Shown in pieces: positions 4,493 through 60,507 of a DNA stretch of 64,000 bases (its first letter is position 1; each line of letters opens with the position of its first letter). Made by a program: the position numbers and the translations under genes. The notes under the pieces are model-generated. The model was given only the letters and a program-made list of their open reading frames with translations. It was not told the DNA's origin and did no database searches. This DNA comes from Candidatus Dormiibacterota bacterium (GTDB taxonomy: Bacteria > Chloroflexota > Dormibacteria > CF-121). The DNA is taken from positions 1,350-65,349 of the forward strand of contig DATEHI010000152.1 in assembly GCA_035279665.1 (NCBI GenBank), read 5' to 3'.

Positions 4493-7400
4493 GTGATTCG
4501 ACAGCGTGCATCGCGACTTCGCAGGTTGAGTCTCACGGTCGGCCTGGCGCTCGCACTCCTGCCGGTCGGGCTTTCGCCAATCAGTGGATGGGCATCCCAC
4601 GCGGCATCGGACGGGCCGGGAAATCTGTCGCACTTCGACCTGGCGCGGAAGGATTGCCTGGGCACCGCCCGGAACACCACGTCGAAAGTCTGGTTCACGG
4701 TCGCCAACGGTGTCCTGAGCGACGTCTATTTCCCGACCGCGGACAACACGAATGTCGAAACCCTCCAACTCGTCGTGACGGACGGGCGCACCTTCACGGA
4801 CCTGCAGACGCGCGACATGACCTACACGGTGAGGGCGCCGGATGCGCGGTCACTCGAATGCCAGGTGACCAGCACGGCAAAAAGCGGACGGTACCGGATC
4901 ACGACCGACTATCTCACCGATCCCGCGCGGAACACGCTGCTGATGCGCATCGCGTTCGAGCCGCAGGAGGGCGACAACGCGAACTATCACGTCTATCTTC
5001 GGTACGACCCGAGCATCAATGGCAATGGCGGGGGCGGTTCGGGCAACGGGGGTGGTGACTCCGGCCTCATCGATACCTCGACTGGGCACGCAGTTCCCGT
5101 CGCCTTCGACACCACGACCACGAGCCAGGCGGTCAACCGCACTTACGCGGTCCCGGTCTTCAGCGCGCTCGATGCCTCGCGGCCCTTCCGCCAGGTTAGC
5201 AACGGCTTCAAGGGCGCCGCCAGCGATGGTCTCACCCAGCTTGATGCGTCTCACGCGATGACCTCCACCAACGACACCGCCAGCAACGGCAACCTCGTCC
5301 AGACCGCGCAGCTCGACTTCGCCGAGGAGGGTGAGCTGACTCTGGCGCTCGGCTTCGGCACCACCCAGGCGCAGGCTGTCGCCGCCGCCGCCGGCTCGCT
5401 GCACGGCGAATTCGATGACGTGCGGGGCTCCTTCCAGGCCGGCTGGCACGCGTACGACGCCTCGCTGATCAAGCCGCCAGCCCACGTGGCCGGCGTGACG
5501 CGAAGCCAGTGGCGCCAGCTGGTGAACGGCTACTACTTGAGCGCCAACGTCGTCAAAGCCAGCGAGGACAAGACGTTTCCCGGCGCGATCGTAGCCAGCC
5601 TCGCGTCGCCCTGGGGCCAGGCGATCTCGGCCGGCGACCCCAACAATCTCTACTTCGGCTCGTACCGGGAGGTCTTTGCGCGCGATCTCTACGAGGCCTG
5701 GACCGCACTCATGGTGGATGGCGACGTGCAGACCGCGCGTGCTGCGGCGCGGTTCCTCCTGGAGCGGCAGCAGCTCCCGGATGGATCCATGCCGCGCAAC
5801 AGCCTGCTCAACGGCAAGGTGGCGCCCGACTCCTTCAACACCCAGCTGGACGAAGTGAGCTACCCGATCGTGATGGCCTACCAGCTCGGCATGACCGACT
5901 CCGTCCTGTATCAGAACCACATCCGATCGGCGATCGATTTCTTGATCGCGCACGGCCCGTCCTTCGGTCCTGAGCGCTGGGAAGAGCAGGGCGGCTTCTC
6001 ACCCTCCACGATCGCGGCCGAAGTCGCCGGGCTCGTGGCAGGCGCGACGATTGCCGAGGCCAACGGCGATACCGCAACGGCGAATGTGGCGCGCGCCGTC
6101 GCCGACGACTGGCAGCGGAGCCTTCCCGGCTGGGCCGTCACGACCAACGGGCCGCTCGCGAGCCATCCGTACTACATCCGTCTTTCGAAGTCGGGCGATC
6201 CCAACGCGGCCATCTCGTACAACGTCGGCAATGGCGGCCCGACGCTGGACCAGCGCGCGATCATCGACCAGGGGTTCCTGGAGATGGTGCGCCTCGGCCT
6301 GACGCCGGCCTCGGATCCGACCATCGCGCAGTCGCTCCCGGTCGTCGACGCCACCATCAAGGCCGACACGTCGACCGGCGCCGGCTTCCATCGCTACAAC
6401 GGTGACGGCTATGGCGACGGTGCCGGCGATGGGCACCCATGGGCGCCGTCGGGCAAAGGCACCGGCCATCTGTGGCCGGCGCTGGCGGGTGAGCGGGGCG
6501 AGTACGAGCTCGCGACCGGCAATGCCGCCGCCGGATGGCAACGTCTGATCGCGATGCTGGGCGGCGCCTCGGGTCCCGGGTTGATCCCGGAGCAGGTCTG
6601 GGAGCTGCCCGACCTCGCCGCCTCACCGTTCGGGACGGATCCGACCGTCGCCTCGATCGGGTTCCACAACGGCGGGCCGGCGGGGTCGGCATCGCCGCTG
6701 ACATGGTCGGACGCGCAGTACGTTCGCCTGATGCGCGATCTGAGTGCCGGCAAGGTGCTCGAGCAGCCGGCCATTGTGGCCAACCGGTATGTCGCGCATC
6801 AGCAGGGACAGACCAGCCTGACCGTCACCCAGCCGGCCGACAACAGCGCGGTCGCCGGGTCCCCGGTCACGGTAGCCGGCACGTCGCTGCCGGGCAACAC
6901 GATCTCCGTCGCGGCGACGAACACCGATAACAACAGCCAGACCACGACGGGGACGACCGCGGTTCAGCCCGACGGCAGCTTCAGCCTGTTGGTACCGGTC
7001 GGCGGAGGCACGACGGTGGTGAACATCGTGGCCGTGAGCCCCACCGGCGCGACCGCGCACGTGCAGCGGAGCATCGTGTTTGACTTCACGCCGGGAACGG
7101 TCCTCCTGGACGTCACCGACCCGAGTGGCGACGACAACGGGCCCGGGAACTATGCGTATCCGACGGCCGGGGACTTCCATGCGGGCGCGTTCGACATCCA
7201 GGAGTTCCGCGTCATCGAGAGTCCGGACGGCGCGACCACCACCTTCAAGTTGAAGGTGCGCGACCTGTCCCCAACGTTTGGCAGCCCGCTCGGCGCGCAG
7301 CTGGTCGACGTCTACGTGCACGACCCGGCCGCCGCGGCGCCGAACACGTCGACGGCGGCGTCGTTCCCTCAGCGCAATTACGCCATCGCGGCCCCCGGGG

Positions 7401-7810
7401 CCTGGAGCCGCCTGGTCGAGGTGCAGGGCTTCGGCCAGCGCTATATCGATGCGCAAGGCACGACCAGGGGAACCGTGACCATCAGTGCCAACGCGATCTC
7501 ACGCTTCATCACCTTCAGCGTGCCGACCGCCAGCCTGGGCGGAGCGCCCGCGTCGGGCTGGGGATTCACGGTCGTCCTCACCGGCCAGGACGGCTTCAGC
7601 CCGGACCAGGCGCGCAGCTTCGCCCCGACGCCGCAGGGCTACCAGTTCGGCGTGTGCGCCACGGCGAGCGCCGACCCGCCTTGCACCTTCGATCCCAACA
7701 AGGTGCCGAAAGCGATGGACGTGCTCACGCCGGTGGGCGTGCTGCAGTCAAACGAGCTCGACTACCTCCTCCACAACCCCGTCACGTTGCAGGACGTCAC
7801 GATTCCGTAG
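4493..7810 (+). CDS. Secreted GH15 glucoamylase/glucodextranase-family protein (1105 aa) with N-terminal beta-sandwich and C-terminal Ig-like domains
   Basis: A GTG start is followed by a signal peptide (LSLTVGLALALLPVGLSPISGWA). The (alpha/alpha)6 region (FPGAIVASLASPWGQA...YFGSYREVFARDLYEAWTAL...LLERQQLPDGSMPRN) is typical of bacterial GH15. Long C-terminal extra domains follow. Confidence 0.8.
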   Translation: MIRQRASRLRRLSLTVGLALALLPVGLSPISGWASHAASDGPGNLSHFDLARKDCLGTARNTTSKVWFTVANGVLSDVYFPTADNTNVETLQLVVTDGRTFTDLQTRDMTYTVRAPDARSLECQVTSTAKSGRYRITTDYLTDPARNTLLMRIAFEPQEGDNANYHVYLRYDPSINGNGGGGSGNGGGDSGLIDTSTGHAVPVAFDTTTTSQAVNRTYAVPVFSALDASRPFRQVSNGFKGAASDGLTQLDASHAMTSTNDTASNGNLVQTAQLDFAEEGELTLALGFGTTQAQAVAAAAGSLHGEFDDVRGSFQAGWHAYDASLIKPPAHVAGVTRSQWRQLVNGYYLSANVVKASEDKTFPGAIVASLASPWGQAISAGDPNNLYFGSYREVFARDLYEAWTALMVDGDVQTARAAARFLLERQQLPDGSMPRNSLLNGKVAPDSFNTQLDEVSYPIVMAYQLGMTDSVLYQNHIRSAIDFLIAHGPSFGPERWEEQGGFSPSTIAAEVAGLVAGATIAEANGDTATANVARAVADDWQRSLPGWAVTTNGPLASHPYYIRLSKSGDPNAAISYNVGNGGPTLDQRAIIDQGFLEMVRLGLTPASDPTIAQSLPVVDATIKADTSTGAGFHRYNGDGYGDGAGDGHPWAPSGKGTGHLWPALAGERGEYELATGNAAAGWQRLIAMLGGASGPGLIPEQVWELPDLAASPFGTDPTVASIGFHNGGPAGSASPLTWSDAQYVRLMRDLSAGKVLEQPAIVANRYVAHQQGQTSLTVTQPADNSAVAGSPVTVAGTSLPGNTISVAATNTDNNSQTTTGTTAVQPDGSFSLLVPVGGGTTVVNIVAVSPTGATAHVQRSIVFDFTPGTVLLDVTDPSGDDNGPGNYAYPTAGDFHAGAFDIQEFRVIESPDGATTTFKLKVRDLSPTFGSPLGAQLVDVYVHDPAAAAPNTSTAASFPQRNYAIAAPGAWSRLVEVQGFGQRYIDAQGTTRGTVTISANAISRFITFSVPTASLGGAPASGWGFTVVLTGQDGFSPDQARSFAPTPQGYQFGVCATASADPPCTFDPNKVPKAMDVLTPVGVLQSNELDYLLHNPVTLQDVTIP

Positions 7811-7939
7811 TCCGTCATTCGGTTGGCGGGGGCCACGTCGCCGCATCGCCGAGCAGGGTCTCGGCTGCCGCGGCCTGGATCGTCGCCGCATCATCATGCG
7901 CGCCTGGTGGCTGGAGGATGTAGTCTTAACCGCCTTGTC

Positions 7940-8491
7940 ATGACGGACGTAAATCCGAGACCGAGCCGCGTCGACCTGCGCAAGCAGATGGAAGAGATTA
8001 CCCGCTTGCGCCGAGAAATGAGCGCCAGGACCCCGGAGCAGCGGCGGATCACCACGCGGGCGGTCGCGCGACTCCTCGAGGACGTCCACCTGGAAGGACG
8101 GATGGGGAAGTTCGTGGTCGAGTCCGACGAGCCGCTGGCACGCGGCGGCACCGAGAAGGGTCCGTCGCCGCTGCAGTACGTGATGATGGGGACCGCCTTT
8201 TGACTGCTCACCCAGCTGGCGCGGTTCGCGCCGCTCTACGAGGTCCCGATCGAGGACGCCTCGGCTGACGTGCGAGCCACCTTCCACAACACCGAGAAAT
8301 ACGATGTCGACGACGCCCCCGCCTACTTCGAAGAGGTGACGGTCGAGCTCGCCGTAATCAGCAGCGCGCCGAGCGCCAGCGTTCGAAAACTGGTGACGCA
8401 TGCCGAGCGTGCCTGCCACGCGGCGCAGTCACTGGCGCATGCGGTGCCCGTGCACCTGCACGCCACGTTGAACCGTAAAGCGCTGCCGTAG
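7940..8491 (+). CDS. OsmC/Ohr-family peroxiredoxin-like protein with an in-frame TGA (8201-8203) at the peroxidatic Cys position. Candidate selenoprotein, or a pseudogene
   Basis: Track ORFs 7823..8203 and 8270..8491 are in the same frame and are separated only by TGA. The join ...GPSPLQYVMMGTAF-U-LLTQLARFA... aligns with the OsmC active-site motif (E. coli AAHAACFSMAL). The second catalytic Cys (HAERACHAAQS) is present downstream. ATG at 7940 (MTDVNPRP...). Confidence 0.6.
8214..8235 (+). other. Putative bacterial SECIS-like hairpin 10 nt downstream of the in-frame UGA
   Basis: AGC-U-GGCGCG-GUU-CGCGCC-GCU is a perfect 3+6 bp stem with a bulged U on the 5' side and a GU-containing apical loop 21-23 nt after UGA. 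This is the geometry of bacterial SECIS elements. Confidence 0.5.
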
Positions 8492-8498
8492 GCCGTCG

Positions 8499-9407
8499 AT
8501 GACTCGCGGATTCGTCGAACGGTTGAACGCGGGCGACGTCCTCTTCGCGGATGGCGCCACCGCGACCAACTACCAGGAGATGGGAATGGGGATCGGCGTT
8601 GCTCCCGAGGAATGGGTGTTCGATCAGCCCAACGCGGTTCGCGACCTTCACTGCGCATTCATCGACGCCGGTGCCGACATCATCCTCACGGATACCTTTG
8701 GCGGAACCTCGCTGCGCCTGCGGGAATCGCGATATGCCGGCCGTGCGACCGAGCTCAACCGCCGAGCCGCCGAGCTGGCCCGGTCGGCGGTTGGATCGCG
8801 CGAGGGCGTGCTGGTGGCCGGCTCGATGGGGCCGACCGGGATCCTGATGGAACCCCTGGGTGACCTCACGGCCGCGGCCGCCGCCGAGGCCTACGCCGAG
8901 CAGGCGGCAGCCCTGAGCGGCGCCGGTGTCGACCTTCTCCTCCTGGAAACCTTCTTTGCGCTCGAAGAGGCGCTGGCGGCCGTCCAGGGAATCCGACAGG
9001 CCAGCGCATTGCCGCTGGTCGTGTCTTTCAGCTTCGACCAGGGGACGCGGACGATGATGGGCCTCAGTCCGACGAGGATGGTCGAGGCCATCCGCCCACT
9101 CGGCGTGGCCGCGATCGGCGCCAACTGCGGCCGGTCGCTCGCCGACATGGAACGCGTCGTCGCGGAATTGGCCGGTCTCCATGCCGGGATTCCCCTGTGG
9201 ATCAAGCCGAACGCCGGCCTGCCGCGGATGGTTGGTGATGTCGCCCGCTACGACACCGGGCCGGACGAGATGGCCGACTATGCCCGGCGATTCGTCGAGG
9301 CCGGTGCGCGAGTCATCGGCGGCTGCTGCGGCAGCTCACCCGAGCACACTCGGCGTATGATCGCCGCGGCGTCTGGAGGGCGCCTCCGGGTCCGCGGGCA
9401 GGACTGA
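8499..9407 (+). CDS. Homocysteine S-methyltransferase family protein (Pfam S-methyl_trans; MmuM/BHMT-like)
   Basis: The 302-aa product has ...GADIILTDTFGGTS... and a C-terminal GGCCGSSPEHT zinc/Hcy-binding motif. Confidence 0.7.
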   Translation: MTRGFVERLNAGDVLFADGATATNYQEMGMGIGVAPEEWVFDQPNAVRDLHCAFIDAGADIILTDTFGGTSLRLRESRYAGRATELNRRAAELARSAVGSREGVLVAGSMGPTGILMEPLGDLTAAAAAEAYAEQAAALSGAGVDLLLLETFFALEEALAAVQGIRQASALPLVVSFSFDQGTRTMMGLSPTRMVEAIRPLGVAAIGANCGRSLADMERVVAELAGLHAGIPLWIKPNAGLPRMVGDVARYDTGPDEMADYARRFVEAGARVIGGCCGSSPEHTRRMIAAASGGRLRVRGQD

Positions 9408-9460
9408 ATCCACCTCCACGTGCAGGGAGCTCCAGAGCCGCTCCAAACCGTTGATCTGAG

Positions 9461-11305
9461 TTACTCGACGGCCTCCATCAGCAGGATCACACTGGGGGCG
9501 CCGCCGAGCACGCCCATGGCGGTGCACTGCACACGGCAGGTGAAGTTCTTCCCGCGCCGGTTGGTCGCCTGCACCGTCAACTCCTGGAACCCGTCGCCGC
9601 CGTTGAGGCATTTCTCGATCGGGTTCGCCAGCTCCGCTAGCGGCAGGCCGATATCGAGTCCGAGCAGTGGCTGGCCGATGGTTTCGTGGGCCTGGACGCC
9701 CCACAGGTCGACGGCTCGCTTGTTCCAGAGCTGGACCCGAAGGTCCTTGTCGAGCACGGCCACACCCAGCTGAAGGTTGGCCATGATCTGTTCCATGAAG
9801 GTGTTCACGCGGTCCAGCTGGATGCTGCGTTCCTGCAACTCGGTATTGATCGTCTGCAACTCGGTGTTCGTCGACTCGAGCTCCTCATTCATCGTCTCGA
9901 GCTCCTCGTTGCTCGATTGGAGCTCCTCGTTAGTGGTTTCCAACTCTTCGACGGTCGACTGCAGTTCCTCGTTGGTGGTCTCCAGCTCTTCGTTGGTCGA
10001 CTGCAATTCCTCGGACGTGGTTTCGAGATCATGCTTGGACCGCTCGAGGTCCCGGTAGATCCCGTTGTATCCGCTGACGTCGGTAAACGAGATGCCGGCG
10101 CCGAGCGGGGTCGCCCCTTTGTCGAGCAATGGCACGACCTCTATGTCGAAATACTGGGGGTCGCCGTTCGGCGCCCGACGCTCGACGTCGTGGGTGACTA
10201 CCGGCAGGCGGTTCCGGTAGGCCTCGTCGATCATCGAGCGCAGATCCAGCGGACGATAGGAAATCTCGAGATCTTGCAGTGGCCGACCCACGTCGGCAGG
10301 GGCAAGGCCAAGGCTCCCGCGCGCCCGCTCATTGATCGAGATGATGAACCCGGCCGTGTCGACAACCACGTGCGCGATCGGCAGCGCGTCGGCCGCCAAC
10401 TCGCGGACGCGCCCCTGGCGGGTCACCTGGTTGGCTGCCTCGGGATTGCCCGCCTGGGCGAGGATGACCAGGCGCTCGCGGAGCGTCTCTTTCGCGACTT
10501 TGCCGAAGACGTGCTGGGTGGCCTCGACTTGCGCAAAGAGGTCACTTCGCCGCAACAGCATTTCCGCCTTGCCCAGGAACAGGTAGCCCTTCTCGGTCAG
10601 TGCATAGTGCAGACGGGCAAGGATCCTCGCCTGCGCCTCCGATTCGAAGTACATCAGCGTATTCCGGCAAATCAGCAGATCGATGCGTGAGATCGGCGCA
10701 TCCTGTAAGAGATCGTGCCGCCCAAAGATGAGCGAGCGTCGGAGATCGCCACGAAGCAGGTAATGGTTCCCCTCGGCCTCGAAGTATTTCTCTCGAAGGC
10801 CGGGGGATACCTCTTCCAGTTCCTTCTCCTCGGCTCTTCCCTGGCGCGCCCGCGTCAGCGCGTCGTCGTCGACGTCGGTGGCGTAGATCTTGGCCCGTTG
10901 TCGATACTCCGTGGTGCCGAGTGCCTCGCAGAGGAGCATCGCGATGCTGTAGGCCTCTTCGCCCGATGCCACGCCGGCGCTCCATACGCGGATCGGCTCG
11001 TAGCGTTCCTTGGTCGCGATGATCTTGGGCAGGATCTCCTGCCGCAGATACTCCCATGCCGGAGCATCTCGAAAGTAGCTGGTCACATTGATGAGGATCG
11101 TGTTGAACAGGGCAGCGAACTCGCCCGGCTGCGCCTCCAGATACTCGAGATAGGCGGCATGGTCCTTGACACCGACGGCCGTCATCCGTTTGGCGACCCG
11201 GCGCACCAAGGTCGTCCGCTTGTAGTCGCCAAAGTCGAAGCCGCGGCTCTCCCGAATGTACTCCAGAAGCCGCTCGAAGTCGGGGCCTGTCGCCTCGCCC
11301 TTCAC
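9461..11305 (-). CDS. cheR: CheR-type protein-glutamate O-methyltransferase fused to PAS / coiled-coil / PAS sensor domains
   Basis: N-terminal CheR SAM-MTase motifs (RVWSAGVASGEEAYSIAMLL, LLICRNTLMYF) are followed by PAS, a heptad-repeat segment (TTSEELQSTNEELETTNEELQ...) and a second PAS. Confidence 0.8.
   Translation of the reverse strand: MKGEATGPDFERLLEYIRESRGFDFGDYKRTTLVRRVAKRMTAVGVKDHAAYLEYLEAQPGEFAALFNTILINVTSYFRDAPAWEYLRQEILPKIIATKERYEPIRVWSAGVASGEEAYSIAMLLCEALGTTEYRQRAKIYATDVDDDALTRARQGRAEEKELEEVSPGLREKYFEAEGNHYLLRGDLRRSLIFGRHDLLQDAPISRIDLLICRNTLMYFESEAQARILARLHYALTEKGYLFLGKAEMLLRRSDLFAQVEATQHVFGKVAKETLRERLVILAQAGNPEAANQVTRQGRVRELAADALPIAHVVVDTAGFIISINERARGSLGLAPADVGRPLQDLEISYRPLDLRSMIDEAYRNRLPVVTHDVERRAPNGDPQYFDIEVVPLLDKGATPLGAGISFTDVSGYNGIYRDLERSKHDLETTSEELQSTNEELETTNEELQSTVEELETTNEELQSSNEELETMNEELESTNTELQTINTELQERSIQLDRVNTFMEQIMANLQLGVAVLDKDLRVQLWNKRAVDLWGVQAHETIGQPLLGLDIGLPLAELANPIEKCLNGGDGFQELTVQATNRRGKNFTCRVQCTAMGVLGGAPSVILLMEAVE
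9805..10045 (-). repeat. Imperfect 21-nt (heptad-coding) tandem DNA repeats inside cheR encoding the EELQSTNEELETTNEEL coiled coil
   Basis: The plus strand shows reiterated gagctcctcgttg..t.g..t units between about 9880 and 10020. Confidence 0.6.
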
Positions 11306-11976
11306 CGAACCACCCCTTGTGCGACCAGGGTCGTAAGGGCCGGCGGGATCTCCTCGAGCCGAAGAATGAAATCGGCATGGCCCGACTTGATCGCCGCCCC
11401 GGGCATACCGAAAAACTCCGCCGACTCCTGAGCCTGGGCGATCACGGTACCACCCATCTTCTTGATCGCCCCGATGCCGAGCGATCCATCGCTTCCGGTT
11501 CCGGTGAGGACCACCGCAATCGCGCGGTCCTTGTAGCTTGCCGCTACCGATTCGAAGAGCAGGTCGGCGCTCGGCCGGACGAAATGGACCAGCTCGGATT
11601 GCGTCAGCGACAGGCTCCCGTCCCGATTGACCAGGAGATGACGGTCGGGCGGCGCGATGTGCACCGTTCCCGGCCGGATGTGATCACCCTCCGCGGCCTG
11701 GACGACCTCGAGCGGGGTCCGCCGGCGAAGGATCTCGGCCATCAGGCTGCGGTGGCGCGGATCCAGATGTTGGACCACGACAATCGCCGCCGGGAAGCCG
11801 GCCGGGAGGCTCTCCAGGATGTGCCCGATCGCCGCGATGCCACCCGCCGACGAGGCCAGGGCGACCACGTCGTAGGCCGTCAGCGGAAACCGCTGGGCGG
11901 GTTTGGGCGGATCGAGATCGTCAGGCTCGGCTGAGGGCGGTGTTTGCTGGACCAACGTGCCCCTCCTTGGGCCCAT
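11302..11976 (-). CDS. cheB: CheB-type protein-glutamate methylesterase, catalytic domain only (no receiver)
   Basis: VVALASSAGGIAAIGHILESLP...VVVQHLDP...AIAVVLTGTGSDG is the CheB_methylest signature. There is a 4-nt overlap with the downstream cheR start. Confidence 0.8.
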   Translation of the reverse strand: MGPRRGTLVQQTPPSAEPDDLDPPKPAQRFPLTAYDVVALASSAGGIAAIGHILESLPAGFPAAIVVVQHLDPRHRSLMAEILRRRTPLEVVQAAEGDHIRPGTVHIAPPDRHLLVNRDGSLSLTQSELVHFVRPSADLLFESVAASYKDRAIAVVLTGTGSDGSLGIGAIKKMGGTVIAQAQESAEFFGMPGAAIKSGHADFILRLEEIPPALTTLVAQGVVR

Positions 11977-13025: not shown

Positions 13026-14714
13026 GTGACCGTCGTCGAGTTGCGCGTGCTCGACGGGCCCAACCTCTACTTCACGCGGCCCGCCATCAAGCTGACGCTC
13101 GAGGTGGCTCCCTGGCTGGCCCTCCCAGACGAGCGGGCGCAACGCCTCGCCAGGCGGGCCGGCTTCACACCGGCGGCGACCGCGGGCGCGCCCAGGAGCG
13201 ACCAGCGCCGCCGCTATGTCGCCCGCTTCGCGGTGCACATCGCGCGTCTGCTGGCTGACGCAACCGCGACGCACCTCGCGATTCGCGGCCGGCCTGGTCC
13301 GGACGCCGAGCAGATCGTGGTGGCGTTCGTGTGGCGCCGGCAGCGGGCCGCGGAAGCGTTCGCGCGCGAGCTCGCCCCGCTGCTGGAGTTATGCCTCGAC
13401 GGGCGCCGATCGCTCGAACGGGCCATCGCGGAAGCGGCGGATCGCCTGGGCAGCATGGAGCCCGGGCCGGCGCCGACGGTGCTGCGCCCCACCATTCCCA
13501 TCATCGCGGTGACGGGGACCAACGGCAAGACCACCACCGTGCGGTTGATCGCGCAGCTGGCGCGTATGGCCGGGCACACCGTCGCCTTCACGACGACCGA
13601 CGGGGTCTATCGCGACGACGAGCTGGTCGAGGCGGGCGACTACTCCGGGTTCAGCGGGGCGGCCAAGGCGCTGGCGCAGCCCGGCATCGACCTCGCGGTG
13701 CTGGAGACGGCACGCGGCGGGATCCTGCTCCGAGGGATGGGCACCGACCATAACGACGTGGCGGTGGTGACCAATGTGACCGAGGACCACCTTGATCAAT
13801 ACGGGATCCGCACCCTCGACCAGCTGGCGGAAGTCAAAGCGGCGATCACCAAGATCACGAGGCCGGACGGCTGGGACGTGCTCAATGCCGACGATCCACG
13901 AGTGCTGGCGATGCGACGGTTGGCGGCGGGCCGCCCCTGGCTCTTCTCGCTGGACGCGGACCACCCGGCGATTCGCACGACGCTGGCCGAGGGTGGGCGC
14001 GCGATCTCGGTTCTCGATGGCGCCCTCGTCCTTATCACCTCCGGCCGTCAGGGTCACCGACTCGTCCCGATCGAGGATGTGCCGGTTACGCTGGCGGGCA
14101 TTTCCAGCCATAACGTGAGCAACGCGATGGCGGCGGCGGCGGCCGCCCTTGGTGCGGGGATCCCAGAGGAGGCCGTCATCGAGGGGCTTCGCTCCTTCGT
14201 GTTGGACCCGGAGCGCAATCCTGGCCGGGCCAATATTTTCGAAGTCGATCGCCGCGTGGTGGTCATCGATTACGCCCATAACGAAGACGGCATGCGCGGC
14301 TTGATCGAGATCTGCCAGGGGCTGCGAGCACCGGGCGCCGGCATCGTTCTGGCGTTTGGCTCGGCCGGCGACCGGACCAACGCCATCCTCCACCGGCTGG
14401 GATACACGGCGGCGCGTGGTCCGGACCGGGTCGCGATCGCCGAGCTGCATCGGTACCTGCGCGGCCGCGATCCCCAGGACCTGGTCCACCGGCTGCAGGC
14501 GGGGCTTACGGACGGCGGGAAGCCGAAGTCTCCTGTGTTTCCCAACGAGCTCGAGGCGCTCGAATGGATGTTGGCGGCGTCGGCACCCAACGATGTGATC
14601 GCAATCACTGCGCTGGGGCAGCGCCCCCAGATCTTCCAGTACCTGCGCGACCGGGGCGGAGCACCGGTCGCCCCGCTCCGCATCCGGGAACTGGTGCGGC
14701 GCGCGCGGACCTAA
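13026..14714 (+). CDS. Cyanophycin-synthetase-like protein lacking the ATP-grasp (G) domain (CphA N-domain plus Mur-ligase M-domain; CphA2-like)
   Basis: The N-terminus MTVVELRVLDGPNLYFTRPAIKLTLEV parallels the CphA N-domain and the downstream cphA (ILESQVLRGPNFWSYDPAIRLLVDL). It is followed directly by the Mur-ligase P-loop IIAVTGTNGKTTT at about residue 165. The ~300-aa ATP-grasp segment is therefore absent. Confidence 0.65.
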   Translation: MTVVELRVLDGPNLYFTRPAIKLTLEVAPWLALPDERAQRLARRAGFTPAATAGAPRSDQRRRYVARFAVHIARLLADATATHLAIRGRPGPDAEQIVVAFVWRRQRAAEAFARELAPLLELCLDGRRSLERAIAEAADRLGSMEPGPAPTVLRPTIPIIAVTGTNGKTTTVRLIAQLARMAGHTVAFTTTDGVYRDDELVEAGDYSGFSGAAKALAQPGIDLAVLETARGGILLRGMGTDHNDVAVVTNVTEDHLDQYGIRTLDQLAEVKAAITKITRPDGWDVLNADDPRVLAMRRLAAGRPWLFSLDADHPAIRTTLAEGGRAISVLDGALVLITSGRQGHRLVPIEDVPVTLAGISSHNVSNAMAAAAAALGAGIPEEAVIEGLRSFVLDPERNPGRANIFEVDRRVVVIDYAHNEDGMRGLIEICQGLRAPGAGIVLAFGSAGDRTNAILHRLGYTAARGPDRVAIAELHRYLRGRDPQDLVHRLQAGLTDGGKPKSPVFPNELEALEWMLAASAPNDVIAITALGQRPQIFQYLRDRGGAPVAPLRIRELVRRART

Positions 14715-17470
14715 GTCCCGGGCGAGACGGGCAACGCCCGGCGCGCCTCGAGGTTGCGCCAGGTGTCGGCGGGCTTGTCGACGCAGAGGAGGACCACATC
14801 GCCGGCGCTGGCGCGGCCGAGGGCGGCGTCGATGGCCGGTCCCTCGTCGATGATGATCTCGGCGCTCTGCACGCGGCTCTCGGCGGCGGCCTTGATGCCC
14901 TCCATCACGTGGCCGGCGATCTCGCCACGCTGCCGACCGCGAGGGTTCGCGTCTTCGCGCACGATCAGGATGTCGAAGACGCGCGCCGCCACCCGCCCGA
15001 GCTCGCGCATGTCCTCGTTCCGGCGATCACCAGGGGTTGCGATCACGGCGATGCGGCGCCCCGGCTCGGGTCCGTTGACCCCTGGCGCCGTGAGGCGCTC
15101 CACGAAGTCTCCGGCCAGCGCGAGGCCATGCGGGTTATGGGCGTAGTCGACGATCACCTTCACGCCGTGCAGCTCGAACATGTTGAGGCGTCCGGGCGCT
15201 TCGTGGAACGATGGATGGAAGCTGCGCAGCCCCTGCCGGATGTCGTGCAGGTGGGCGCCGGCGGCGTGGGCCGCCGCCGCTGCGGCCAGCGCATTCTGGA
15301 CGTTCGCCCGCGCCCGACCCTCGAAGGTGGCCGGGATCAGGTGGATCCAGGCGATCTGCGTGCTGCGCCGGCCCTCGCGCAGCACCATCATCTCGCGGCC
15401 GCCCGGCTGCGTCTCGATGACGAAGGCTTTGCGGCCGCGACGCACCCAGCGACCCACCAACTCGTTGTCGTCGCGCATCGAGAAAAGGATGACCGACCCG
15501 CTGCAGTGGGTCCGCATCTCGGCGACCAGCTCGTCATCGGCGTTGAGGACGGCGGTGCCGCTGCGGGGAACGGCCTCGACAATGACCCGCTTGATGGCGG
15601 CCAGCTGGCGCAACGAGTTCACCTCTTTGAGGCCGATGTGGTCGCCGGTGACGTTCAGCACGACCGCGACGTCGTTCGCGCTGTAACCAAGGCCCTCCCG
15701 AAGGATCCCACCGCGAGCGACCTCGAAGACGGCAAAGTCGACGCGAGGATTCTGGAGCACCATGCGGGCGGAGCGCGGGCCGCTCGCGTCGGCCGGCTTG
15801 ACCAGCCGGCCGTCGATATAGATGCCGTCGGTGGTCGTCATCCCGACCTTGTGGCCGAGGCCTCTGACGATGTGGGCGATCATGCGCGCCGTGGTCGTCT
15901 TGCCGTTCGAGCCGGTGACGGCGACGATCGGGATGCGCGAGGGCGTACCTTGCGGGAACAGCAGATCGATGACGGCCTTCGCCACATACTGCGGCTCGCC
16001 CTCGGTAGGGTGGGTGTGCATCCGAAAGCCGGGGGCGGCGTTCACCTCGACGATCGCCCCTCCAGTTTCGCGCACCGGCTGGCAGATGTCAGGCGTCAGG
16101 AAGTCGATGCCTGCCACGTCGAGACCGACCACGCGCGCCGCCTCTTCGGCGATCTCGACGTTGTCGTGATCCGCCTCCATGGTGCGGTCGATCGAGATGC
16201 CTCCGGTCGACATGTTGGCGGTCGCCGCCAGCTTGACGACCGCATCCTTTGGCGCAATCTCGTCGAGGCCGAATCCCTGCCGTTTGACCAGCGCGTCGGC
16301 GGCGTCATCGATCTTGATCCGGGTCAGCACCTTTTCGTGGCCGATGCCGCGCCTGGGATCGCGGTTAGTGATGTCGACCAGCTCGCGCACCGTGTGTTCC
16401 CCGTCGCCGATGACGTGCGCGGGAACCCGCTCGGCGACCGCAACCATGTGGCCGTCGATGACGAGCACCCGATAGTCGTTGCCCTTGATAAAACTCTCCA
16501 CCACGACCACACCGCTGCGCGTCTGGCGGATGGCTCGCTCAAAGGCCCGACGGACGTCTTCCTCGGTGCGCAGGTCGAGACTCACGCCGCGTCCATGGTT
16601 GCCGTCGAGCGGCTTCAACACCACCGGATAACCGATGCGCGCGGCGATTGCCGCGGCCTCGTCCGCGGATCGGACGGTATCGCTGCGGGGCACCGGCAGC
16701 CCCGCTGAGGCGAGCAAGGACGTGGTCAGCTTCTTGTCACCCGCGATGTCCACACCCAGCGCCGAGGTGCGGGACGTCATGGTGGCGCGGATGCGCTGCT
16801 GGTATTTGCCCTGTCCGAGCTGGACAAAGGACTGCTCGTTCAGCCGGATGTAGGGGATGTCGCGGCGTGCGGCTTCGTCGAGAATCGCCTGGGTCGAGGG
16901 GCCGAACGCGGCCTGGTCGGCCAGCAGCACCAGGCTCTCCAGCTCGGCGACGAAGTCGAAGGTCGGGTTGGGTTCCACCAGGTGATTGAGCAGCCGGACG
17001 GCAAGCTTCCCGGCCGCCAGTCCGACCTGTTCCTCGTTGTAGCCGTAGACCACGTTGTAATAGCCGGGCGTACCCGCCCGCCGCGTCTTGCCTCGCGTCG
17101 TGCTCGCGCCGGTTTCGCGCTGGAGCTCGAGCGCAACGTGCTCGGCGACGTGGCCCATCCACGTCCCGTCGCGGAGACGCTCGATGAAGCCGCCCGGGCG
17201 GTGGAGCGAGCAGCCGTGATCCTGCAGGCCGGGCAGCAGGTCGATCAGCGCCTCGTTGAAGGCGGGGATCGTGTTCGAGGGCCAGTGCTCGAGCGAGCCG
17301 AGGTCGACGAGCAGGCGAATCGCCGGGTCGTAGGACCAGAAGTTGGGTCCACGCAGCACCTGGCTTTCCAGGATCTTGAGGTTCGGCTTTAGCGGCGGTT
17401 TGTTCTCGACGGGCTCGTGCTTGGCATCCTCGTCGCGCTCGACTCGCGTCTCCATGCGCGACTCGCTCAC
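14711..17470 (-). CDS. cphA: Cyanophycin synthetase CphA (N-domain, ATP-grasp, Mur-ligase domains; 919 aa)
   Basis: ATP-grasp motifs (YPVVLKPLDGNHGRGV, DYRVLVIDGHMVAV) and the Mur-ligase motif IVAVTGSNGKTTT are present. The start ATG overlaps the cphB stop (ATGA). Confidence 0.85.
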   Translation of the reverse strand: MSESRMETRVERDEDAKHEPVENKPPLKPNLKILESQVLRGPNFWSYDPAIRLLVDLGSLEHWPSNTIPAFNEALIDLLPGLQDHGCSLHRPGGFIERLRDGTWMGHVAEHVALELQRETGASTTRGKTRRAGTPGYYNVVYGYNEEQVGLAAGKLAVRLLNHLVEPNPTFDFVAELESLVLLADQAAFGPSTQAILDEAARRDIPYIRLNEQSFVQLGQGKYQQRIRATMTSRTSALGVDIAGDKKLTTSLLASAGLPVPRSDTVRSADEAAAIAARIGYPVVLKPLDGNHGRGVSLDLRTEEDVRRAFERAIRQTRSGVVVVESFIKGNDYRVLVIDGHMVAVAERVPAHVIGDGEHTVRELVDITNRDPRRGIGHEKVLTRIKIDDAADALVKRQGFGLDEIAPKDAVVKLAATANMSTGGISIDRTMEADHDNVEIAEEAARVVGLDVAGIDFLTPDICQPVRETGGAIVEVNAAPGFRMHTHPTEGEPQYVAKAVIDLLFPQGTPSRIPIVAVTGSNGKTTTARMIAHIVRGLGHKVGMTTTDGIYIDGRLVKPADASGPRSARMVLQNPRVDFAVFEVARGGILREGLGYSANDVAVVLNVTGDHIGLKEVNSLRQLAAIKRVIVEAVPRSGTAVLNADDELVAEMRTHCSGSVILFSMRDDNELVGRWVRRGRKAFVIETQPGGREMMVLREGRRSTQIAWIHLIPATFEGRARANVQNALAAAAAAHAAGAHLHDIRQGLRSFHPSFHEAPGRLNMFELHGVKVIVDYAHNPHGLALAGDFVERLTAPGVNGPEPGRRIAVIATPGDRRNEDMRELGRVAARVFDILIVREDANPRGRQRGEIAGHVMEGIKAAAESRVQSAEIIIDEGPAIDAALGRASAGDVVLLCVDKPADTWRNLEARRALPVSPGT

Positions 17471-18399
17471 TCCGAGGCCTTTCGATCCTCGAGACGGCGC
17501 ACCATCTTTCGAACGCGGCCCTGCGCCATCTGGGCGAGATGCTCGTCCTTGGCGAGGACCCGCGGCAGCACGCGGCGCGCGCGCAAGTCGAATCGGTAAC
17601 CGGATGGGAGGGAGTGGAGGCGCGCGTTCGACACCATCATCGGCTTGTGACCGGTCGTCTGGAAAGCGTCGGTGATCACATCGGTGCCGTCGACGATCGT
17701 CACCGAGCCCCGGCCGATCACTTCGAGGACATCATTGGCATCGATGATGGCGGCGGTATCCTCATCGAGGCCCAGCCCGATCAGCGAGGGCGACTGCGCG
17801 ACCACCGCGAGCAGTCGGCCGAGCCGGGTGCGCTGCTCGAAGTGCTGATCGACCACGACGTCGACGAGCAGCCCCAGACCGACCGAGACGTTCGCCATCC
17901 GGTGCTTCGGCGTGGCACCCGAGCTGCCGAACGCCATCATGTGGGTCGCAACCGCGCTCGCGCCCGCGGATGTCCCCGCCACGACGACCCCGCGGCCGTG
18001 GGCGTCGAGCATGGCGGCGCCGAGCTTGGTTCCGCCGATCACGGAGGATAATCGCAGCTGATTACCGCCGGTCATGAAGATGCCGGTGATGTCCTTGAGC
18101 GCCTCGACCATAAGCGGATCGTTGGCCTCTTCGCGAGTTTCCGGACGGAGTCCGGTGACCTTGCTCACGCCGACCCGAGCGAAGATCTGACCGTACAGGT
18201 CCGTCGCCGCATCGCCGAGGGAAGAGGCGGTGCTGATCACGGCGATGCGGGCATGATCGCCACCGGCAAGCTGGGCGAAGCGCGACAGGATGACCCGCTC
18301 GCCCAGTTTGTCCTCGGCGCCGCCGATGACCATGACCGGCCCGACCGGGCCGCCGTCAGTGGTGGGAGCAAGCCGCTGCGGAGCGGACGCGTCGGTCAT
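17467..18399 (-). CDS. cphB: Cyanophycinase CphB (peptidase S51)
   Basis: VMVIGGAEDK...GTSAGASAV... matches the S51 catalytic Ser context. The gene is translationally coupled to cphA. Confidence 0.85.
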   Translation of the reverse strand: MTDASAPQRLAPTTDGGPVGPVMVIGGAEDKLGERVILSRFAQLAGGDHARIAVISTASSLGDAATDLYGQIFARVGVSKVTGLRPETREEANDPLMVEALKDITGIFMTGGNQLRLSSVIGGTKLGAAMLDAHGRGVVVAGTSAGASAVATHMMAFGSSGATPKHRMANVSVGLGLLVDVVVDQHFEQRTRLGRLLAVVAQSPSLIGLGLDEDTAAIIDANDVLEVIGRGSVTIVDGTDVITDAFQTTGHKPMMVSNARLHSLPSGYRFDLRARRVLPRVLAKDEHLAQMAQGRVRKMVRRLEDRKASE

Positions 18400-20794: not shown

Positions 20795-20886
20795 CCGCCT
20801 CCGCGGGGAGGTGGCAGAGTGGTCGAATGCGAGCGCCTGCTAAGCGCTTGAGCGGGTGTTTCCGCTCCCCGGGTTCGAATCCCGGC
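20795..20886 (+). tRNA. tRNA-Ser (anticodon GCU), class II with long variable arm and encoded CCA
   Basis: Acceptor GGGGAGG/CCTTCCC with one G-U pair. D-stem GCA/TGC. Anticodon stem AGCGC/GCGCT with loop CTGCTAA. T-arm CCGGG-TTCGAAT-CCCGG. Discriminator G then CCA. Confidence 0.85.
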
Positions 20887-20965
20887 CTTCCCGCCATTAC
20901 ACGTCACCCTCTGCATTGCTTGGGAACGCGAGAGGGCGGCCACGTGGCCGCCCCCAGCATCGTCT

Positions 20966-25113: not shown

Positions 25114-25201
25114 CTAGCCAGCCTCAGCGTCTGGTCTTGCGTCCCCGGGGAGGCCTGATGTCACCGCGGTTCTCGCCATCTCTCCTTAGGGACGTGCTCA
25201 A

Positions 25202-25879
25202 ATGCCAGATCGGCTGCAACAAGCCATTACGGTGCTCCAGACCCGCTTCGGGAGCGCCGCGCCGCGCCCGTCGGCACCTCCGTGTCCGGCACGATCCTCC
25301 GGGATCCCCGAGCTCGATGCGTTGACTGGGATCGGCGGGTGGCCGGTGGGCCGGCTGAGCTTGCTGGCGGGACCGAGGGGTTCGGGCAAACGAACACTGG
25401 CGCAGCGCAGCGTCGCCGCCGCCAGCCGGGAGGGACCGGTTGCCTACGTCGACATTCCTGGCCGTCTCGATCCAGAATTTCTGAGCCACTTCGATGCGCG
25501 GCTCGACCACCTGCTGGTCGTGCGACCGAAATCCATCAAAGAAGCGATGGCCAGTGTACGGGTGCTGGCGCGTGCCGGCGTCGACTACATCGCCATCGAT
25601 CTGCCGCGCACGCGATCCTCGGGGCTCGATGCCGAGCTGCCGCACTTGTTGCACCGCGCCGCTGAAGCCGAGTGCACGCTCTTGCTGATCCATGACGCTG
25701 ACGCCGAGGACGCGATCCGCTATTACGCCAGCCTGATCCTGAGCTTCCAGCGCAGCGCCTGGGTCTTTCGCCGCGACGGCGATCTGGAAGGCTTGCAGGT
25801 CGATGCCGCCGTCGTCAAGAACCGGCTGGCGCCACCGGGCCGCACCGCCCGATGGATCGTTCCATACCCGATCCCATGA
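25202..25879 (+). CDS. imuA: ImuA' (RecA-fold SulA-like protein of the imuA'-imuB-dnaE2 mutasome)
   Basis: The Walker A-like motif LLAGPRGSGKRTLA and its position as first gene of the cassette behind a LexA box support the call. Confidence 0.7.
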   Translation: MPDRLQQAITVLQTRFGSAAPRPSAPPCPARSSGIPELDALTGIGGWPVGRLSLLAGPRGSGKRTLAQRSVAAASREGPVAYVDIPGRLDPEFLSHFDARLDHLLVVRPKSIKEAMASVRVLARAGVDYIAIDLPRTRSSGLDAELPHLLHRAAEAECTLLLIHDADAEDAIRYYASLILSFQRSAWVFRRDGDLEGLQVDAAVVKNRLAPPGRTARWIVPYPIP

Positions 25880-27066
25880 TCTGCTGCGTTCGCACGCCCC
25901 ACCCATCGCTGATCGCCGCCTGGCTGACGGCGCCGGCGTTGCGCGGCCGTCTACTGATCCTCGGCGGGTTCGCGCACGAGCGCGCTTCGGTGACGACGGC
26001 ATCGGCCGAAGCGCGGGCGCAGGGCGTGGTCGAGGGGATGAGCCTCAACCAGGCTCAACAATTTGCGCCCGACGCCATCTTTCAACCGGTCGACGAGGAG
26101 GCCACAGCCAGGGTCCGCCAGTCCCTGCTCCTGATCCTGCACCACTTCACCCCCGACGTGGCTGCCGGCGAGGATCCTGGCTGTGCCTTCCTCCGTCTCG
26201 ACCGGCTGGCCTTGCGCTGGCCCGACCGTTCGCAATTGCTGGCCGCCATCGGCCGTGCGATCGAGGCCGCCATCCGCGTCAGGCCGGCGATTGGCGTGGC
26301 GTCGTCGATGTTCGTCAGTGCGGTTGCGGCTGCCCATGCCACGGCTGCGGCCCCGGTGATCGTCGAGCAAGAGAACACGCGAGCCTTTCTCGCTCGCTAC
26401 CCGATCGATGTCCTGCCGCTCGATGACGACCTGCGTGAATACCTCGAGCTCCTCGGGATCAAGACGATCGGCCGTCTGCAGGCGATCTCTCGACCCGCGT
26501 TTCGCCGCCAGTTCGGCCAGAAAGCCCTCGTCGTCTATGACCTGGCGTTCGGCGATGACCGGCGTCGCTTACGGCCCTGGCGGCCGGCCGTCCGGATCGA
26601 GGAAAGCGAGCCACTCGAGCCGCCGGTCGACAACACCCAGGCGCTACAATTCATCGCCCGCGCGCTGGCCGAGCGGGTGAGCGCCTCACTGCTTTCGCAA
26701 GGGCTTGGGACACGCGCGGTCCGTATCACCCTCAACCAGGAGTCGGCACCGGCGCTGGTGATCGAGGCGCGCTTTGCCTACCCGATGACGACCGCGGGCG
26801 AGCTGTTCGATGGGATTCGCCCGCGATTGCTGCGCGCGTCGATCATCGCGCCGCTGGAACGGATCACGCTGCGCGCCGGCCGGCTGGAAGCGGCCTATGT
26901 TCGCCAACCCGGGCTGCTGATCCGACGCGATCCCTTCACGGAAGGGATCGCCGATGCGGTCGCGCGCCTACAGGAGGAGTACGGGCCGTCCCTGGTCCAG
27001 CGTGCCGAGGTCCGCAGCGATGCTGCGCCACTCCCGGACCACCGGATCCTGTGGAAACCCGCGTGA
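25852..27066 (+). CDS. imuB: ImuB (catalytically inactive Y-family polymerase-like protein), N-terminal 404 aa
   Basis: Y-family palm/fingers-like region. It overlaps the imuA' end by 28 nt. Its C-terminal domain appears to continue in a different frame (next feature). Confidence 0.7.
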   Translation: MDRSIPDPMICCVRTPHPSLIAAWLTAPALRGRLLILGGFAHERASVTTASAEARAQGVVEGMSLNQAQQFAPDAIFQPVDEEATARVRQSLLLILHHFTPDVAAGEDPGCAFLRLDRLALRWPDRSQLLAAIGRAIEAAIRVRPAIGVASSMFVSAVAAAHATAAAPVIVEQENTRAFLARYPIDVLPLDDDLREYLELLGIKTIGRLQAISRPAFRRQFGQKALVVYDLAFGDDRRRLRPWRPAVRIEESEPLEPPVDNTQALQFIARALAERVSASLLSQGLGTRAVRITLNQESAPALVIEARFAYPMTTAGELFDGIRPRLLRASIIAPLERITLRAGRLEAAYVRQPGLLIRRDPFTEGIADAVARLQEEYGPSLVQRAEVRSDAAPLPDHRILWKPA

Positions 27067-27317
27067 CGGAACTGCTGGCGCCGGCACGGCCGGTCCGGGT
27101 GCGTGTCGATGCGGATGGCGTGCCGACGCACCTCGAGTCGGCGGCCGGGTGGCAGCCGGTGACCCGTGTGCTCAACCGCTGGCGAATCGACTGCGACTGG
27201 TGGCGCAGCCCGGTCTCGCGCGAGTACTGGCGGCTGCTGATCGACGATGACCTCGCGCTCGAGTGCTATTGCAACCGGGCCAGTGCGGAATGGTTTGTCG
27301 AGCGCGTCTATGACTAG
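27051..27317 (+). CDS. imuB: ImuB C-terminal domain segment (88 aa) in the -1 frame relative to imuB. This is a frameshift or a split gene
   Basis: VTELLAPARPVRVRVDADGVPTHLE...RWRIDCDWWRSPVSREYWRLLIDDDLALECY...FVERVYD carries the WW / WR motifs of the ImuB C-terminal domain. Its GTG at 27051 overlaps the imuB stop region. Confidence 0.55.
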   Translation: METRVTELLAPARPVRVRVDADGVPTHLESAAGWQPVTRVLNRWRIDCDWWRSPVSREYWRLLIDDDLALECYCNRASAEWFVERVYD

Positions 27318-30300: not shown

Positions 30301-30453
30301 TACCGGCAGGTGGCGAACCTGGAGCCGATCCTGATCATGGACGGGCGGCTGCAGAAACAGGACGGCGTGCTGAGCGTGCTCGTCGACCACGTCGAGGCCG
30401 CGCCCTCGCTGCCCGAGGAGGACGTGTTCCCTACGTCACGGAACTACCGATAG
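27310..30453 (+). CDS. dnaE2: Error-prone DNA polymerase DnaE2 (ImuC)
   Basis: The PHP domain start is MTSAYAELHCHSNYSFLEGAS, with polIII-alpha core motifs and a C-terminal OB fold. An ATG at 27310 is chosen over the 27247 track start. Confidence 0.85.
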   Translation: MTSAYAELHCHSNYSFLEGASHPDELLARARDLEMPALAITDRNGFYGAVKFFGAAQRAGIQPIIGTELTIDDGTTPPKDRVDYDRWGDRLLLLVEDKLGYTSLCRLISMAQMPNAKGMARLAPDKLAGLSNHLIALVADPKERLPFYQEIFGRERVFIELHDHLAPDDRSRNQRLLDLAGQYAAPLVITNEVFYATPDRHRLHDVLTAIRHRTTLDEAQRYLHPNAEHYLKSGVELRQVFGRYPRKVVDDGLAHAAEIAGRCLFSFDLVSARFPGFPVPAGETPYSFLYRLCQDAVREKYRPVTSEVAARLQKELDVINKTGFSEFFLINWDLMRFARLRGIPGQGRGSAADSIVAYLLGITRVDPIEHNLLFERFLHEEMTTTPDIDIDFSTAHREQVIQYVYEKYGPERTGMVCNVVTYRQRSAIREVGKALGFKEETIDHLAKSASAWHPESPETIAQAAGYPTANAAKPWQQLFDLATQILDFPRHLSIHVGGMLVTGEPLIDIVPVERATMPGRMVVQFNKDDVEELGLIKMDMLGLRMLSVVAEALDLIEADTGVRPDLDALDLKDPAVYELCTQADTIGVFQIESRAQMQTLPRSRPETFNDLVVEVAIIRPGPIQGDAVHPYLRRKQGREPVMYIHPRLKPILEETLGVVLYQEQILKISMECASFSSAEADRFRRAMSSHRSHDLMAAIRERFLSGCAHNEIPQPIAEEIFTKLSAFAEFGFTKSHAAAFARTCYETAWLKLHHAPALYAGLLNHQPMGFYHPHVLVEDAKHHDVKILAVDINKSYVRCTVEGGALRLGFNYVHGVGDKALEVLEEAQLKGPVTSLEEFCRRIRLTTQSRNGLTRAQVQNLVLAGAFDALEPNRREAVWRFNEHADDWQHTPMLAEPSESVSLAPMTHRERVATDYRLLSLTTTDHLIHFYRPQFDALHVIDSKTIRSSVRDGAKVRVGGLVITRQSPSTGKEFKFFTLADEFGHVDVILRPPIYQRYRQVANLEPILIMDGRLQKQDGVLSVLVDHVEAAPSLPEEDVFPTSRNYR

Positions 30454-36871: not shown

Positions 36872-37140
36872 TGTCCGCTCGACGGTCTGCGCGGTCGCGC
36901 GGCCTGCCGCCGCCTCAGTCTTCGCCGTCGGGCACACCTTTAGGCCGCGAGTCCTCTCCGGTTTCCAGCTCGTCCCACGACGGGCCGAGTCGCGGGTAGT
37001 CGCCGGGTCGCCAGGGTTTGTCGCGCTGTACGGAATTATCCTCCATGACGTTTGCTCCTCTTCCGAGATCCAAAGGCGGCTGTCAGGGCGAGTGACAGCC
37101 GCCTCAACGGCGAACGCGCGAACCAACCGACTAGGGCGAA

Positions 37141-59210: not shown

Positions 59211-59341
59211 GGCGAAACAGCCGCCCGTGGTTACCGGCTAGCGCACATCGGGACCCACGCAAAACCCGGATACGGCGAGTCCTTTACGGCTGATACTCAG
59301 CCACTCTAGAATTCGAAAGGAATGGAAGTGAGGGGACTGCT

Positions 59342-59758
59342 GTGAGTGGCGTCCCGGCTTCAATTCCGGCAAACGACGAACCACCCGTCCTTGTCGCCGA
59401 TGACGACAAGGACGTTCGCACGATGCTCCGGACGTTGCTCGAGCTCGATGGCCACGACGTCATGGAAGCCAAGGACGGCGATGAGGCCTGGCGGCTGTGC
59501 GTCGAGAGCCAGCCGGCGGTCGTCGTGGCCGACATCCAGATGCCGGGGATCGACGGGCTACAACTCTGCCGGCGGATCCGTGAGAGCCGCTACTCCCTCG
59601 ACATCAAGGTCATCGTCTACACCGCCGGGATGGCGACGCCCGAGGAGGCCAAAAAGGCCGGCTGTGACGAGTACTTCCTGAAGACCGATCCCTTGCCAAA
59701 GCTGCGGGCCAAGGTCCGTCAATACACGAGCGCCCGTTCAGGACCTCCCACGCTCTAG
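59342..59758 (+). CDS. Stand-alone response-regulator receiver domain (CheY-like)
   Basis: VLVADDDKDVRTML...VVVADIQMPGIDGLQL...KVIVYTA includes the phospho-acceptor Asp context. Confidence 0.7.
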   Translation: MSGVPASIPANDEPPVLVADDDKDVRTMLRTLLELDGHDVMEAKDGDEAWRLCVESQPAVVVADIQMPGIDGLQLCRRIRESRYSLDIKVIVYTAGMATPEEAKKAGCDEYFLKTDPLPKLRAKVRQYTSARSGPPTL

Positions 59759-59844
59759 CCTTACCCTCCCCTCACCAGGGTGCGAATACGATCCGTATTC
59801 AGCGGCTGCAAGGTCGACCGGCGCGCCCGGGTTATACCGCAGGG

Positions 59845-60492: not shown

Positions 60493-60507
60493 CTAGACTC
60501 TTTCCCC

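Follow-up and report, generated by a model that had tools for sequence, protein, structure and literature searches.

An in-frame UGA at the catalytic cysteine position of an OsmC-related gene from Candidatus Dormiibacterota: a probable selenoprotein

An OsmC-related gene from Candidatus Dormiibacterota is interrupted by a TGA codon, precisely where homologous proteins carry their first catalytic cysteine. Does this TGA end a protein, does it mark a damaged gene, or is it read as selenocysteine (Sec)? The question was addressed by computational analysis of the whole 64,000-nucleotide stretch of DNA that holds the gene (in the following: the window) and of related loci from genomes and metagenomes. 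Positions 7940-8491 very probably constitute one gene, coding for an OsmC-related selenoprotein of 183 residues with Sec inserted at the UGA. There is equally little doubt that the residue replaced by selenocysteine, encoded by the in-frame UGA, is the catalytic Cys of an OsmC-type antioxidant enzyme.

Reading frame, family and fold

On the forward strand, 7940-8491 translates in one frame of 183 codons, from ATG 7940 to TAG 8489-8491, with TGA 8201-8203 as the sole internal stop. Around this stop the translation reads ...PLQYVMMGTAF, then the stop, then LLTQLARFAPLYEVPI... (in short form: ...GTAF, stop, LLTQLARFAPLY...). The list of open reading frames contains the gene as two entries in a common frame, 7823..8203 (TTG start, 126 aa) and 8270..8491 (GTG start, 73 aa). 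The start at ATG 7940 agrees with the starts of full-length homologues in the alignment. The features of the gene are the following:

7940..8491, + strand: coding sequence of the probable OsmC-related selenoprotein, with Sec at codon 88; identified by NF041052, Pfam OsmC, the start of the homologues and a dN/dS of about 0.18 on either side of the TGA
8201..8203, + strand: UGA codon, probably read as Sec (U88), in a U-L-L-T (UxxT) motif; column of the first catalytic Cys of OsmC/Ohr proteins
8414..8416, + strand: TGC codon of Cys159 in the HAERACHAAQ motif; presumed resolving Cys, with the motif unchanged throughout two family alignments

The initial annotation had described two ORFs in one frame, parted by nothing but the TGA, and an intact RACHAAQS motif further downstream. 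The first claim is borne out by the translation and the ORF list, and the second by the Cys159 codon. It had also placed the UGA at the conserved catalytic Cys and had proposed an alignment of the joined protein as a check. This alignment was carried out: full-length homologues read AFCLLTQ or AFCLITQ at this point, so that the UGA column is indeed a Cys column.

The family of the joined protein was determined with a Cys put in for the stop. This query matches the NF041052 model, 'OsmC-related (seleno)protein', with 149.5 bits against a cutoff of 95 (E = 5.9e-44), whereby positions 2-143 of the 144 in the model are covered by protein residues 37-178. It also matches the Pfam OsmC domain (PF02566) with 52 bits against a gathering threshold of 27.5 (E = 1e-13; residues 70-173, model positions 1-99 of 100). 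The window protein is thus a full-length member of NF041052 (OsmC_like_Se), and no difference from the family was detected; the family name covers proteins with either Sec or Cys. TGA 8201-8203 falls on the first redox position of the family and aligns with the Cys of its full-length homologues.

The closest solved structure by sequence is the OsmC-like protein 3CJE (E = 2e-6), of which both Cys align to U88 and C159. The profile comparison (hhalign) with E. coli OsmC places U88 on Cys59 and C159 on Cys125, although the match is weak (E = 0.13). For the Cys homologue P0001, which is 58% identical to the window protein, AlphaFold gave a model with a pLDDT of 82. The best Foldseek matches of this model are 1LQL, 6MJN, 2OPL, 2ONF and the Ohr and OsmC structures (1QWI), with E-values of 1e-8 to 1e-5. 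Judged from the model of this homologue, the predicted fold of the window protein matches that of OsmC/Ohr proteins. The fold and the two redox positions are thus in common with the OsmC/Ohr peroxidases (E. coli OsmC, 1QWI/1NYE; the Ohr proteins of Xylella, Pseudomonas and Chromobacterium). In comparison to E. coli OsmC and Ohr, however, the window protein would carry Sec instead of the peroxidatic Cys, its second motif reads ERACHAAQ, and it shares with its family a conserved N-terminal extension of about 55 residues beyond OsmC/Ohr proteins. With a sequence similarity to E. coli OsmC as low as this hhalign score indicates, the activity of the window protein is a prediction.

Selenoproteins of this type have been described before. 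A 2005 study of the Sargasso Sea metagenome described OsmC-like selenoproteins that carry a UxxT motif, assigned to COG1765 (Zhang, Fomenko & Gladyshev 2005, PMC1088965, Tables 1 and 3); the family also figures in the GOS selenoproteome survey, and a 2026 review of the prokaryotic selenoproteome lists the OsmC-like family as PF02566 with UxxT (PMC13188914). The annotation's remark that such proteins occur in metagenomic surveys is therefore correct. The redox motif in the OsmC domain of the window protein is U88-L-L-T91. When likened by described motif and features, and not by direct sequence comparison, the marine proteins and the window's soil clade have in common the OsmC domain, the UxxT motif, the existence of Cys homologues and, right behind the UGA, a SECIS-like hairpin with a G in its small apical loop. 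Since the NF041052 cutoff is passed and the UxxT family is published, the window protein is a member of a known selenoprotein family; family, motif and mechanism have all been described, and the finding leaves the knowledge of selenoproteins unchanged. Mildly new are the host, Candidatus Dormiibacterota, and the sampling; a literature search for selenocysteine in Dormibacterota found no paper.

Conservation of the UGA across relatives

Protein searches returned relatives of two classes. The first class comprises full-length relatives of about 184 residues and about 55% identity, with Cys at the UGA column. The second class holds the closest relatives (77-89% identity), all of which are fragments: N-terminal pieces that end in ...GTAF, or C-terminal pieces that start just after it. 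Such a break at one and the same point in all close relatives is the signature of gene callers halting at a conserved UGA.

Reading of the underlying DNA revealed TGA at codon 88 in 114 of 114 Sec-form loci (31 genome loci that cover the codon, 80 metagenome loci and 3 contigs from an exact look-up), at protein identities to the window of 49-93%. The genome loci belong mainly to Candidatus Dormiibacterota and to soil MAGs named 'Chloroflexi bacterium CF_xx'; four Actinomycetes MAGs, one Anaerolinea MAG and others complete the set. For the window itself the match is a soil metagenome contig of 134 kb, and among its relatives Candidatus Dormiibacterota MAGs predominate by far. In the Cys-form homologues, the codon is TGC in all four distinct genes whose DNA was read.

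The region behind the TGA evolves like the region in front of it. Over 449 sequence pairs, the median dN/dS amounts to 0.185 upstream of the TGA and to 0.181 downstream. As both halves are under the same purifying selection, the second half must be translated and selected for as well.

These results bear on the first rival explanation, which the initial annotation had itself put forward: a pseudogene, derived from an ordinary Cys-type OsmC gene by a TGC-to-TGA nonsense mutation. A single base change would suffice for this, and public gene callers do present the gene as two fragments, of 87 aa and 73 aa. However, an identical TGA codon in 114 loci of 49-93% identity and from several phyla is not the mark of a chance mutation, and neither is the equal selection on the two halves. 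Moreover, the invariant HAERACHAAQ is kept behind the TGA, and the hairpin described below is under synonymous-site constraint. The second rival, a sequencing or assembly error at 8201-8203, is contradicted by the presence of the TGA in over 100 contigs, which were assembled independently and stem from different samples and projects, as well as by two independent assemblies of the window sequence with identical gene arrangement. The 114 TGA-bearing relatives and the equal dN/dS thus exclude both: the pseudogene is left with a vanishingly small probability, and the sequencing error with a still smaller one. The selenoprotein reading of the initial annotation, on the other hand, is supported by the 114 TGA loci, the dN/dS, the constrained core hairpin and the curated family.

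A reassignment of the codon throughout the genome does not explain the TGA either. Among the ordinary stops of 48 genes in the window, TGA is the commonest (23 TGA, 16 TAG, 9 TAA), and it follows that the codon has not been reassigned genome-wide. When the window was inspected for other in-frame TGA junctions, only one qualified, at 23246 on the minus strand. It was rejected as a second recoding site, as it divides two unrelated genes, DUF72 and DUF222.

The consequence for annotation is a practical one. In the window gene and in its orthologues at four other loci (L001, L003, L124 and L125), the public gene calls are split at the UGA, the N-terminal pieces often carry a spurious upstream extension and the C-terminal pieces start at an internal GTG. 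Because the gene is cut into fragments in this way, the catalytic residue and the full enzyme are missing from the protein catalogues of Dormiibacterota and related soil bacteria.

The hairpin behind the UGA

Ten nucleotides past the UGA, the initial annotation had noted a SECIS-like hairpin with a bulged U. Two forms of this hairpin have to be distinguished:

8218..8232, + strand: core hairpin, candidate SECIS element; 6-bp stem 8218-8223/8227-8232 (GGCGCG/CGCGCC) and loop GUU 8224-8226, within L93-A94-R95-F96-A97-P98
8214..8235, + strand: extended hairpin, with a 3-bp lower stem AGC/GCU and the bulged U8217; forms in the window, not conserved in the family

The extended sequence AGC-U-GGCGCG-GUU-CGCGCC-GCU folds as described, at -13.1 kcal/mol, and its 15-nt core at -9.5 kcal/mol. 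The hairpin starts 10 nt past the UGA and its apical loop 20 nt past it. The published model of bacterial SECIS elements (PMC13188914, Fig. 2A) asks for an apical loop of 3-9 nt in which one of the first two bases is G (as a rule with G or U next to it), an upper stem of 4-16 bp, a minimum free energy of -7.5 kcal/mol or lower and a distance of 16-37 nt between UGA and loop. The core agrees with the model on all four counts: a GUU loop, a stem of 6-7 bp (the seventh pair being a U-G or U-A closing pair), a spacing of 20 nt and a free energy of -9.5 to -10.4 kcal/mol.

In a window with 66% G+C such a fold is easily found. Of 4000 random window positions, 11% precede a hairpin that agrees with the SECIS model and 4% one that is at least as stable; the z-score of the 66-nt fold is only -0.13. 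A permissive Rfam scan of 8150-8320 (E up to 10) matched no family. On its own, the hairpin is weak evidence in a G+C-rich window, and it is the comparative data that carry the significance.

These data were obtained from a codon alignment of 33 distinct Sec-form genes with 75 conserved four- or sixfold degenerate columns (median codon entropy 1.43 bits). Of all 75 columns, Ala94 (GCG in 32/32), Arg95 (CGG in 31/31) and Ala97 (GCG in 30/31) have the three lowest entropies, and these codons are the stem and the loop G. The codon string GCG-CGG-TTC-GCG is found in 30-32 of 31-33 genes. For Ala and Arg columns elsewhere, the entropy is 0.6-2.0 bits. At the nucleotide level, 110 of the 113 Sec-form loci share an unchanged TGGCGCGGTTCGCGCC, with free variation in the codons on either side. 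Stem pairing is preserved in 99.3% of cells, compared to 22-67% with slid partners, and two pairs change on both sides. This covariation comes from two sequences only, the most divergent members of the set: L032 reads GGCGAA-GUU-UUCGCC, where two G-C/C-G pairs have become A-U (along with R to K and A to S in the protein), and in L033 the closing pair is A-U.

The Cys forms, with four distinct genes, serve as a control: they specify ARFAP (VQFAP in L037) by means of other codons, for example CGC/CGT and GCT/GCC. Their loop G is gone (CUU or UUU), and so, for the most part, is the stem. The hairpin is thus conserved beyond the demands of the protein, as follows from the synonymous-site constraint, the compensatory changes and the lack of this constraint in the four Cys forms.

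The lower stem behaves differently. At position 8233, with which the Pro98 codon ends, all four bases (G, A, C and U) occur in the relatives, and the lower stem is lost or turned into U-A. A conserved lower stem was consequently rejected, and so was a pairing that takes in the UGA, as neither is conserved among the relatives. Of the hairpin in the initial annotation, the core 8218-8232 therefore stands, in agreement with the model and conserved, whereas the lower stem and the bulged U are peculiar to the window.

The SECIS elements of the E. coli fdhF/fdnG type and the bSECISearch consensus likewise lie in the coding sequence just after the UGA and have a small G-U loop and a G+C-rich upper stem. 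In comparison to these, the window element is very compact (6 bp and a 3-nt loop), its bulged U is not conserved in the family, and its binding of SelB is a prediction. It is a well-sampled example of a very compact SECIS that is written into a conserved peptide, L-A-R-F-A-P.

The identical 15-nt element is also found in Actinomycetes MAGs at a protein identity of only about 60%. It is conceivable, though rather doubtful, that the uncultured, aerobic soil phylum Candidatus Dormiibacterota has here a conserved and possibly its principal selenoprotein, and either that gene and SECIS have passed together from one phylum to another or that the SelB of these lineages is unusually strict in recognising the minimal 6-bp/GUU element.

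Predicted decoding and catalysis, and gene surroundings

If the hairpin acts as a SECIS element, Sec machinery would be expected in the host. In the 64 kb window, selA, selB and selD were not found, either by Pfam analysis of about 57 ORFs or by tblastn with E. coli SelA, SelB and SelD. ARAGORN and Rfam detected no tRNA-Sec in the 64 kb, only a tRNA-Ser(GCT) at 20805-20896. The same holds for the related loci: no selA, selB or selD was found by tblastn in about 0.9 Mb flanking some 120 of them, and no tRNA-Sec by ARAGORN on 33 loci. A single SelB-like tblastn match near the related loci was rejected, as it is a translational GTPase of 637 aa that was read as TypA/BipA from its sequence and length. 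ARAGORN also called a 94-nt 'tRNA-Asp' in each of two related loci, at 18437-18530 in L003 (inside the coding sequence of a cyanophycin synthetase) and at 16251-16344 in L008; both calls are probably false positives.

The immediate surroundings of the UGA show features of their own. The preceding codon is TTT in 27 of the 33 distinct Sec-form genes and TTC in the other 6; the other Phe columns favour TTC (GC3 about 0.84), and TTC-TGC is what the Cys forms show, in four of four distinct genes. In the Sec forms a C invariably follows the UGA: Leu89 uses only CTN and never TTR. As a termination signal, UGA followed by C is weak. From this codon usage, UUU-UGA-C may be a selected decoding context.

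Both the machinery that was not found in the 64 kb window and the conserved UUU-UGA-C context would fit a third rival explanation, in which the UGA is recoded in another way: a near-cognate Trp or Cys tRNA would read through it with the help of the hairpin, or translation would stop and restart, giving two polypeptides that assemble. However, the residue that homologues carry at this very catalytic column is Cys, the chemical analogue of Sec, and the hairpin fits every constraint on a SelB-type SECIS, also that on the loop G, the very base that is missing from the Cys forms. In addition, NF041052 is curated as a family of selenoproteins. Stop and restart is further contradicted by the 22 codons that separate the TGA from GTG 8270, where translation could next begin: they are highly conserved as protein, and the restart product would lack them. 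Recoding without Sec is therefore improbable, if less so than a pseudogene or a sequencing error.

With insertion of Sec as the preferred reading, decoding would follow the general bacterial mechanism. UGA 8201-8203 would not be read as a stop, with the core hairpin 8218-8232 (loop GUU, 20 nt further on) acting as SECIS. As the ribosome reaches UGA88, the hairpin would recruit SelB with Sec-tRNA(Sec), and Sec would be placed at residue 88. Both the SelB-dependent decoding and the incorporation of selenium at the UGA are predicted by analogy to established bacterial Sec decoding. If this holds true, abundant soil bacteria of the Dormiibacterota type use selenium and keep a Sec-decoding machinery.

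In the predicted structure, Sec88 would be part of the UxxT motif (U-L-L-T) in the long helix at the centre of the OsmC fold, where OsmC/Ohr enzymes have their peroxidatic Cys, and Cys159 would occupy the resolving position. By analogy to OsmC/Ohr enzymes, Sec88 would attack the hydroperoxide and thereby be converted to a selenenic acid. Subsequently, Cys159 and the oxidised Sec88 would form a selenenyl-sulfide, and a thiol donor would regenerate the enzyme. A specific function as hydroperoxide reductase (peroxidase) is thus plausible for the window protein, and slightly favoured from the comparison with these enzymes.

The gene neighbourhood is variable. A homocysteine S-methyltransferase gene (8499-9407, + strand; PF02574, 228 bits) starts 8 nt past the OsmC stop, and this adjacency recurs in the close relatives L001 and L003 and, overall, in 39 of the 93 Sec loci with enough downstream sequence. 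A family-wide linkage to this gene was rejected with this count, as the adjacency is local to a lineage. In divergent Sec loci the neighbours have no relation to one another (TPP enzyme, M24 peptidase, amine oxidase, GGDEF-EAL, TPR regulator). The OsmC selenoprotein gene appears to stand alone functionally.

Around one Cys form, L038 (GCA_009772515.1), the surroundings are of a redox and organomercurial kind that was not seen around the Sec forms: in the region 4944-11914 the homologue adjoins a glutaredoxin gene, with MerR, MerB, a peroxiredoxin and a 'CC_Se_fam' protein (PF28096) close by. Of the hairpin, the DNA of this homologue preserves a remnant of 5 bp (GCGCG-CUU-CGCGC), but not the loop G.

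Several other gene groups were observed in the window. Just upstream of the OsmC gene lies a 1105-aa GH15 glucodextranase-like gene (4493-7810). A cyanophycin-related cluster at 13026-18399, which is syntenic in L001 and L003, is composed of:

13026-14714, + strand: Mur-ligase-like gene
14711-17470, - strand: cyanophycin synthetase
17467-18399, - strand: S51 peptidase, probably cyanophycinase

At 25190-30453 (+ strand), a RecA-fragment protein, an IMS (Y-family-like) protein and a second DNA polymerase III alpha subunit are encoded, which looks like an imuA-imuB-dnaE2 mutagenesis cassette. A tandem pair of glutamine synthetase genes is located at 35558-38604 on the minus strand (Gln-synt_C, 408 and 434 bits). 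Finally, 57999-63999 (+ strand) holds a GH57 gene, followed by a long ORF in which GH57 is fused to a starch/glycogen synthase domain (Glyco_transf_5, Glycos_transf_1) and which continues beyond the end of the window.
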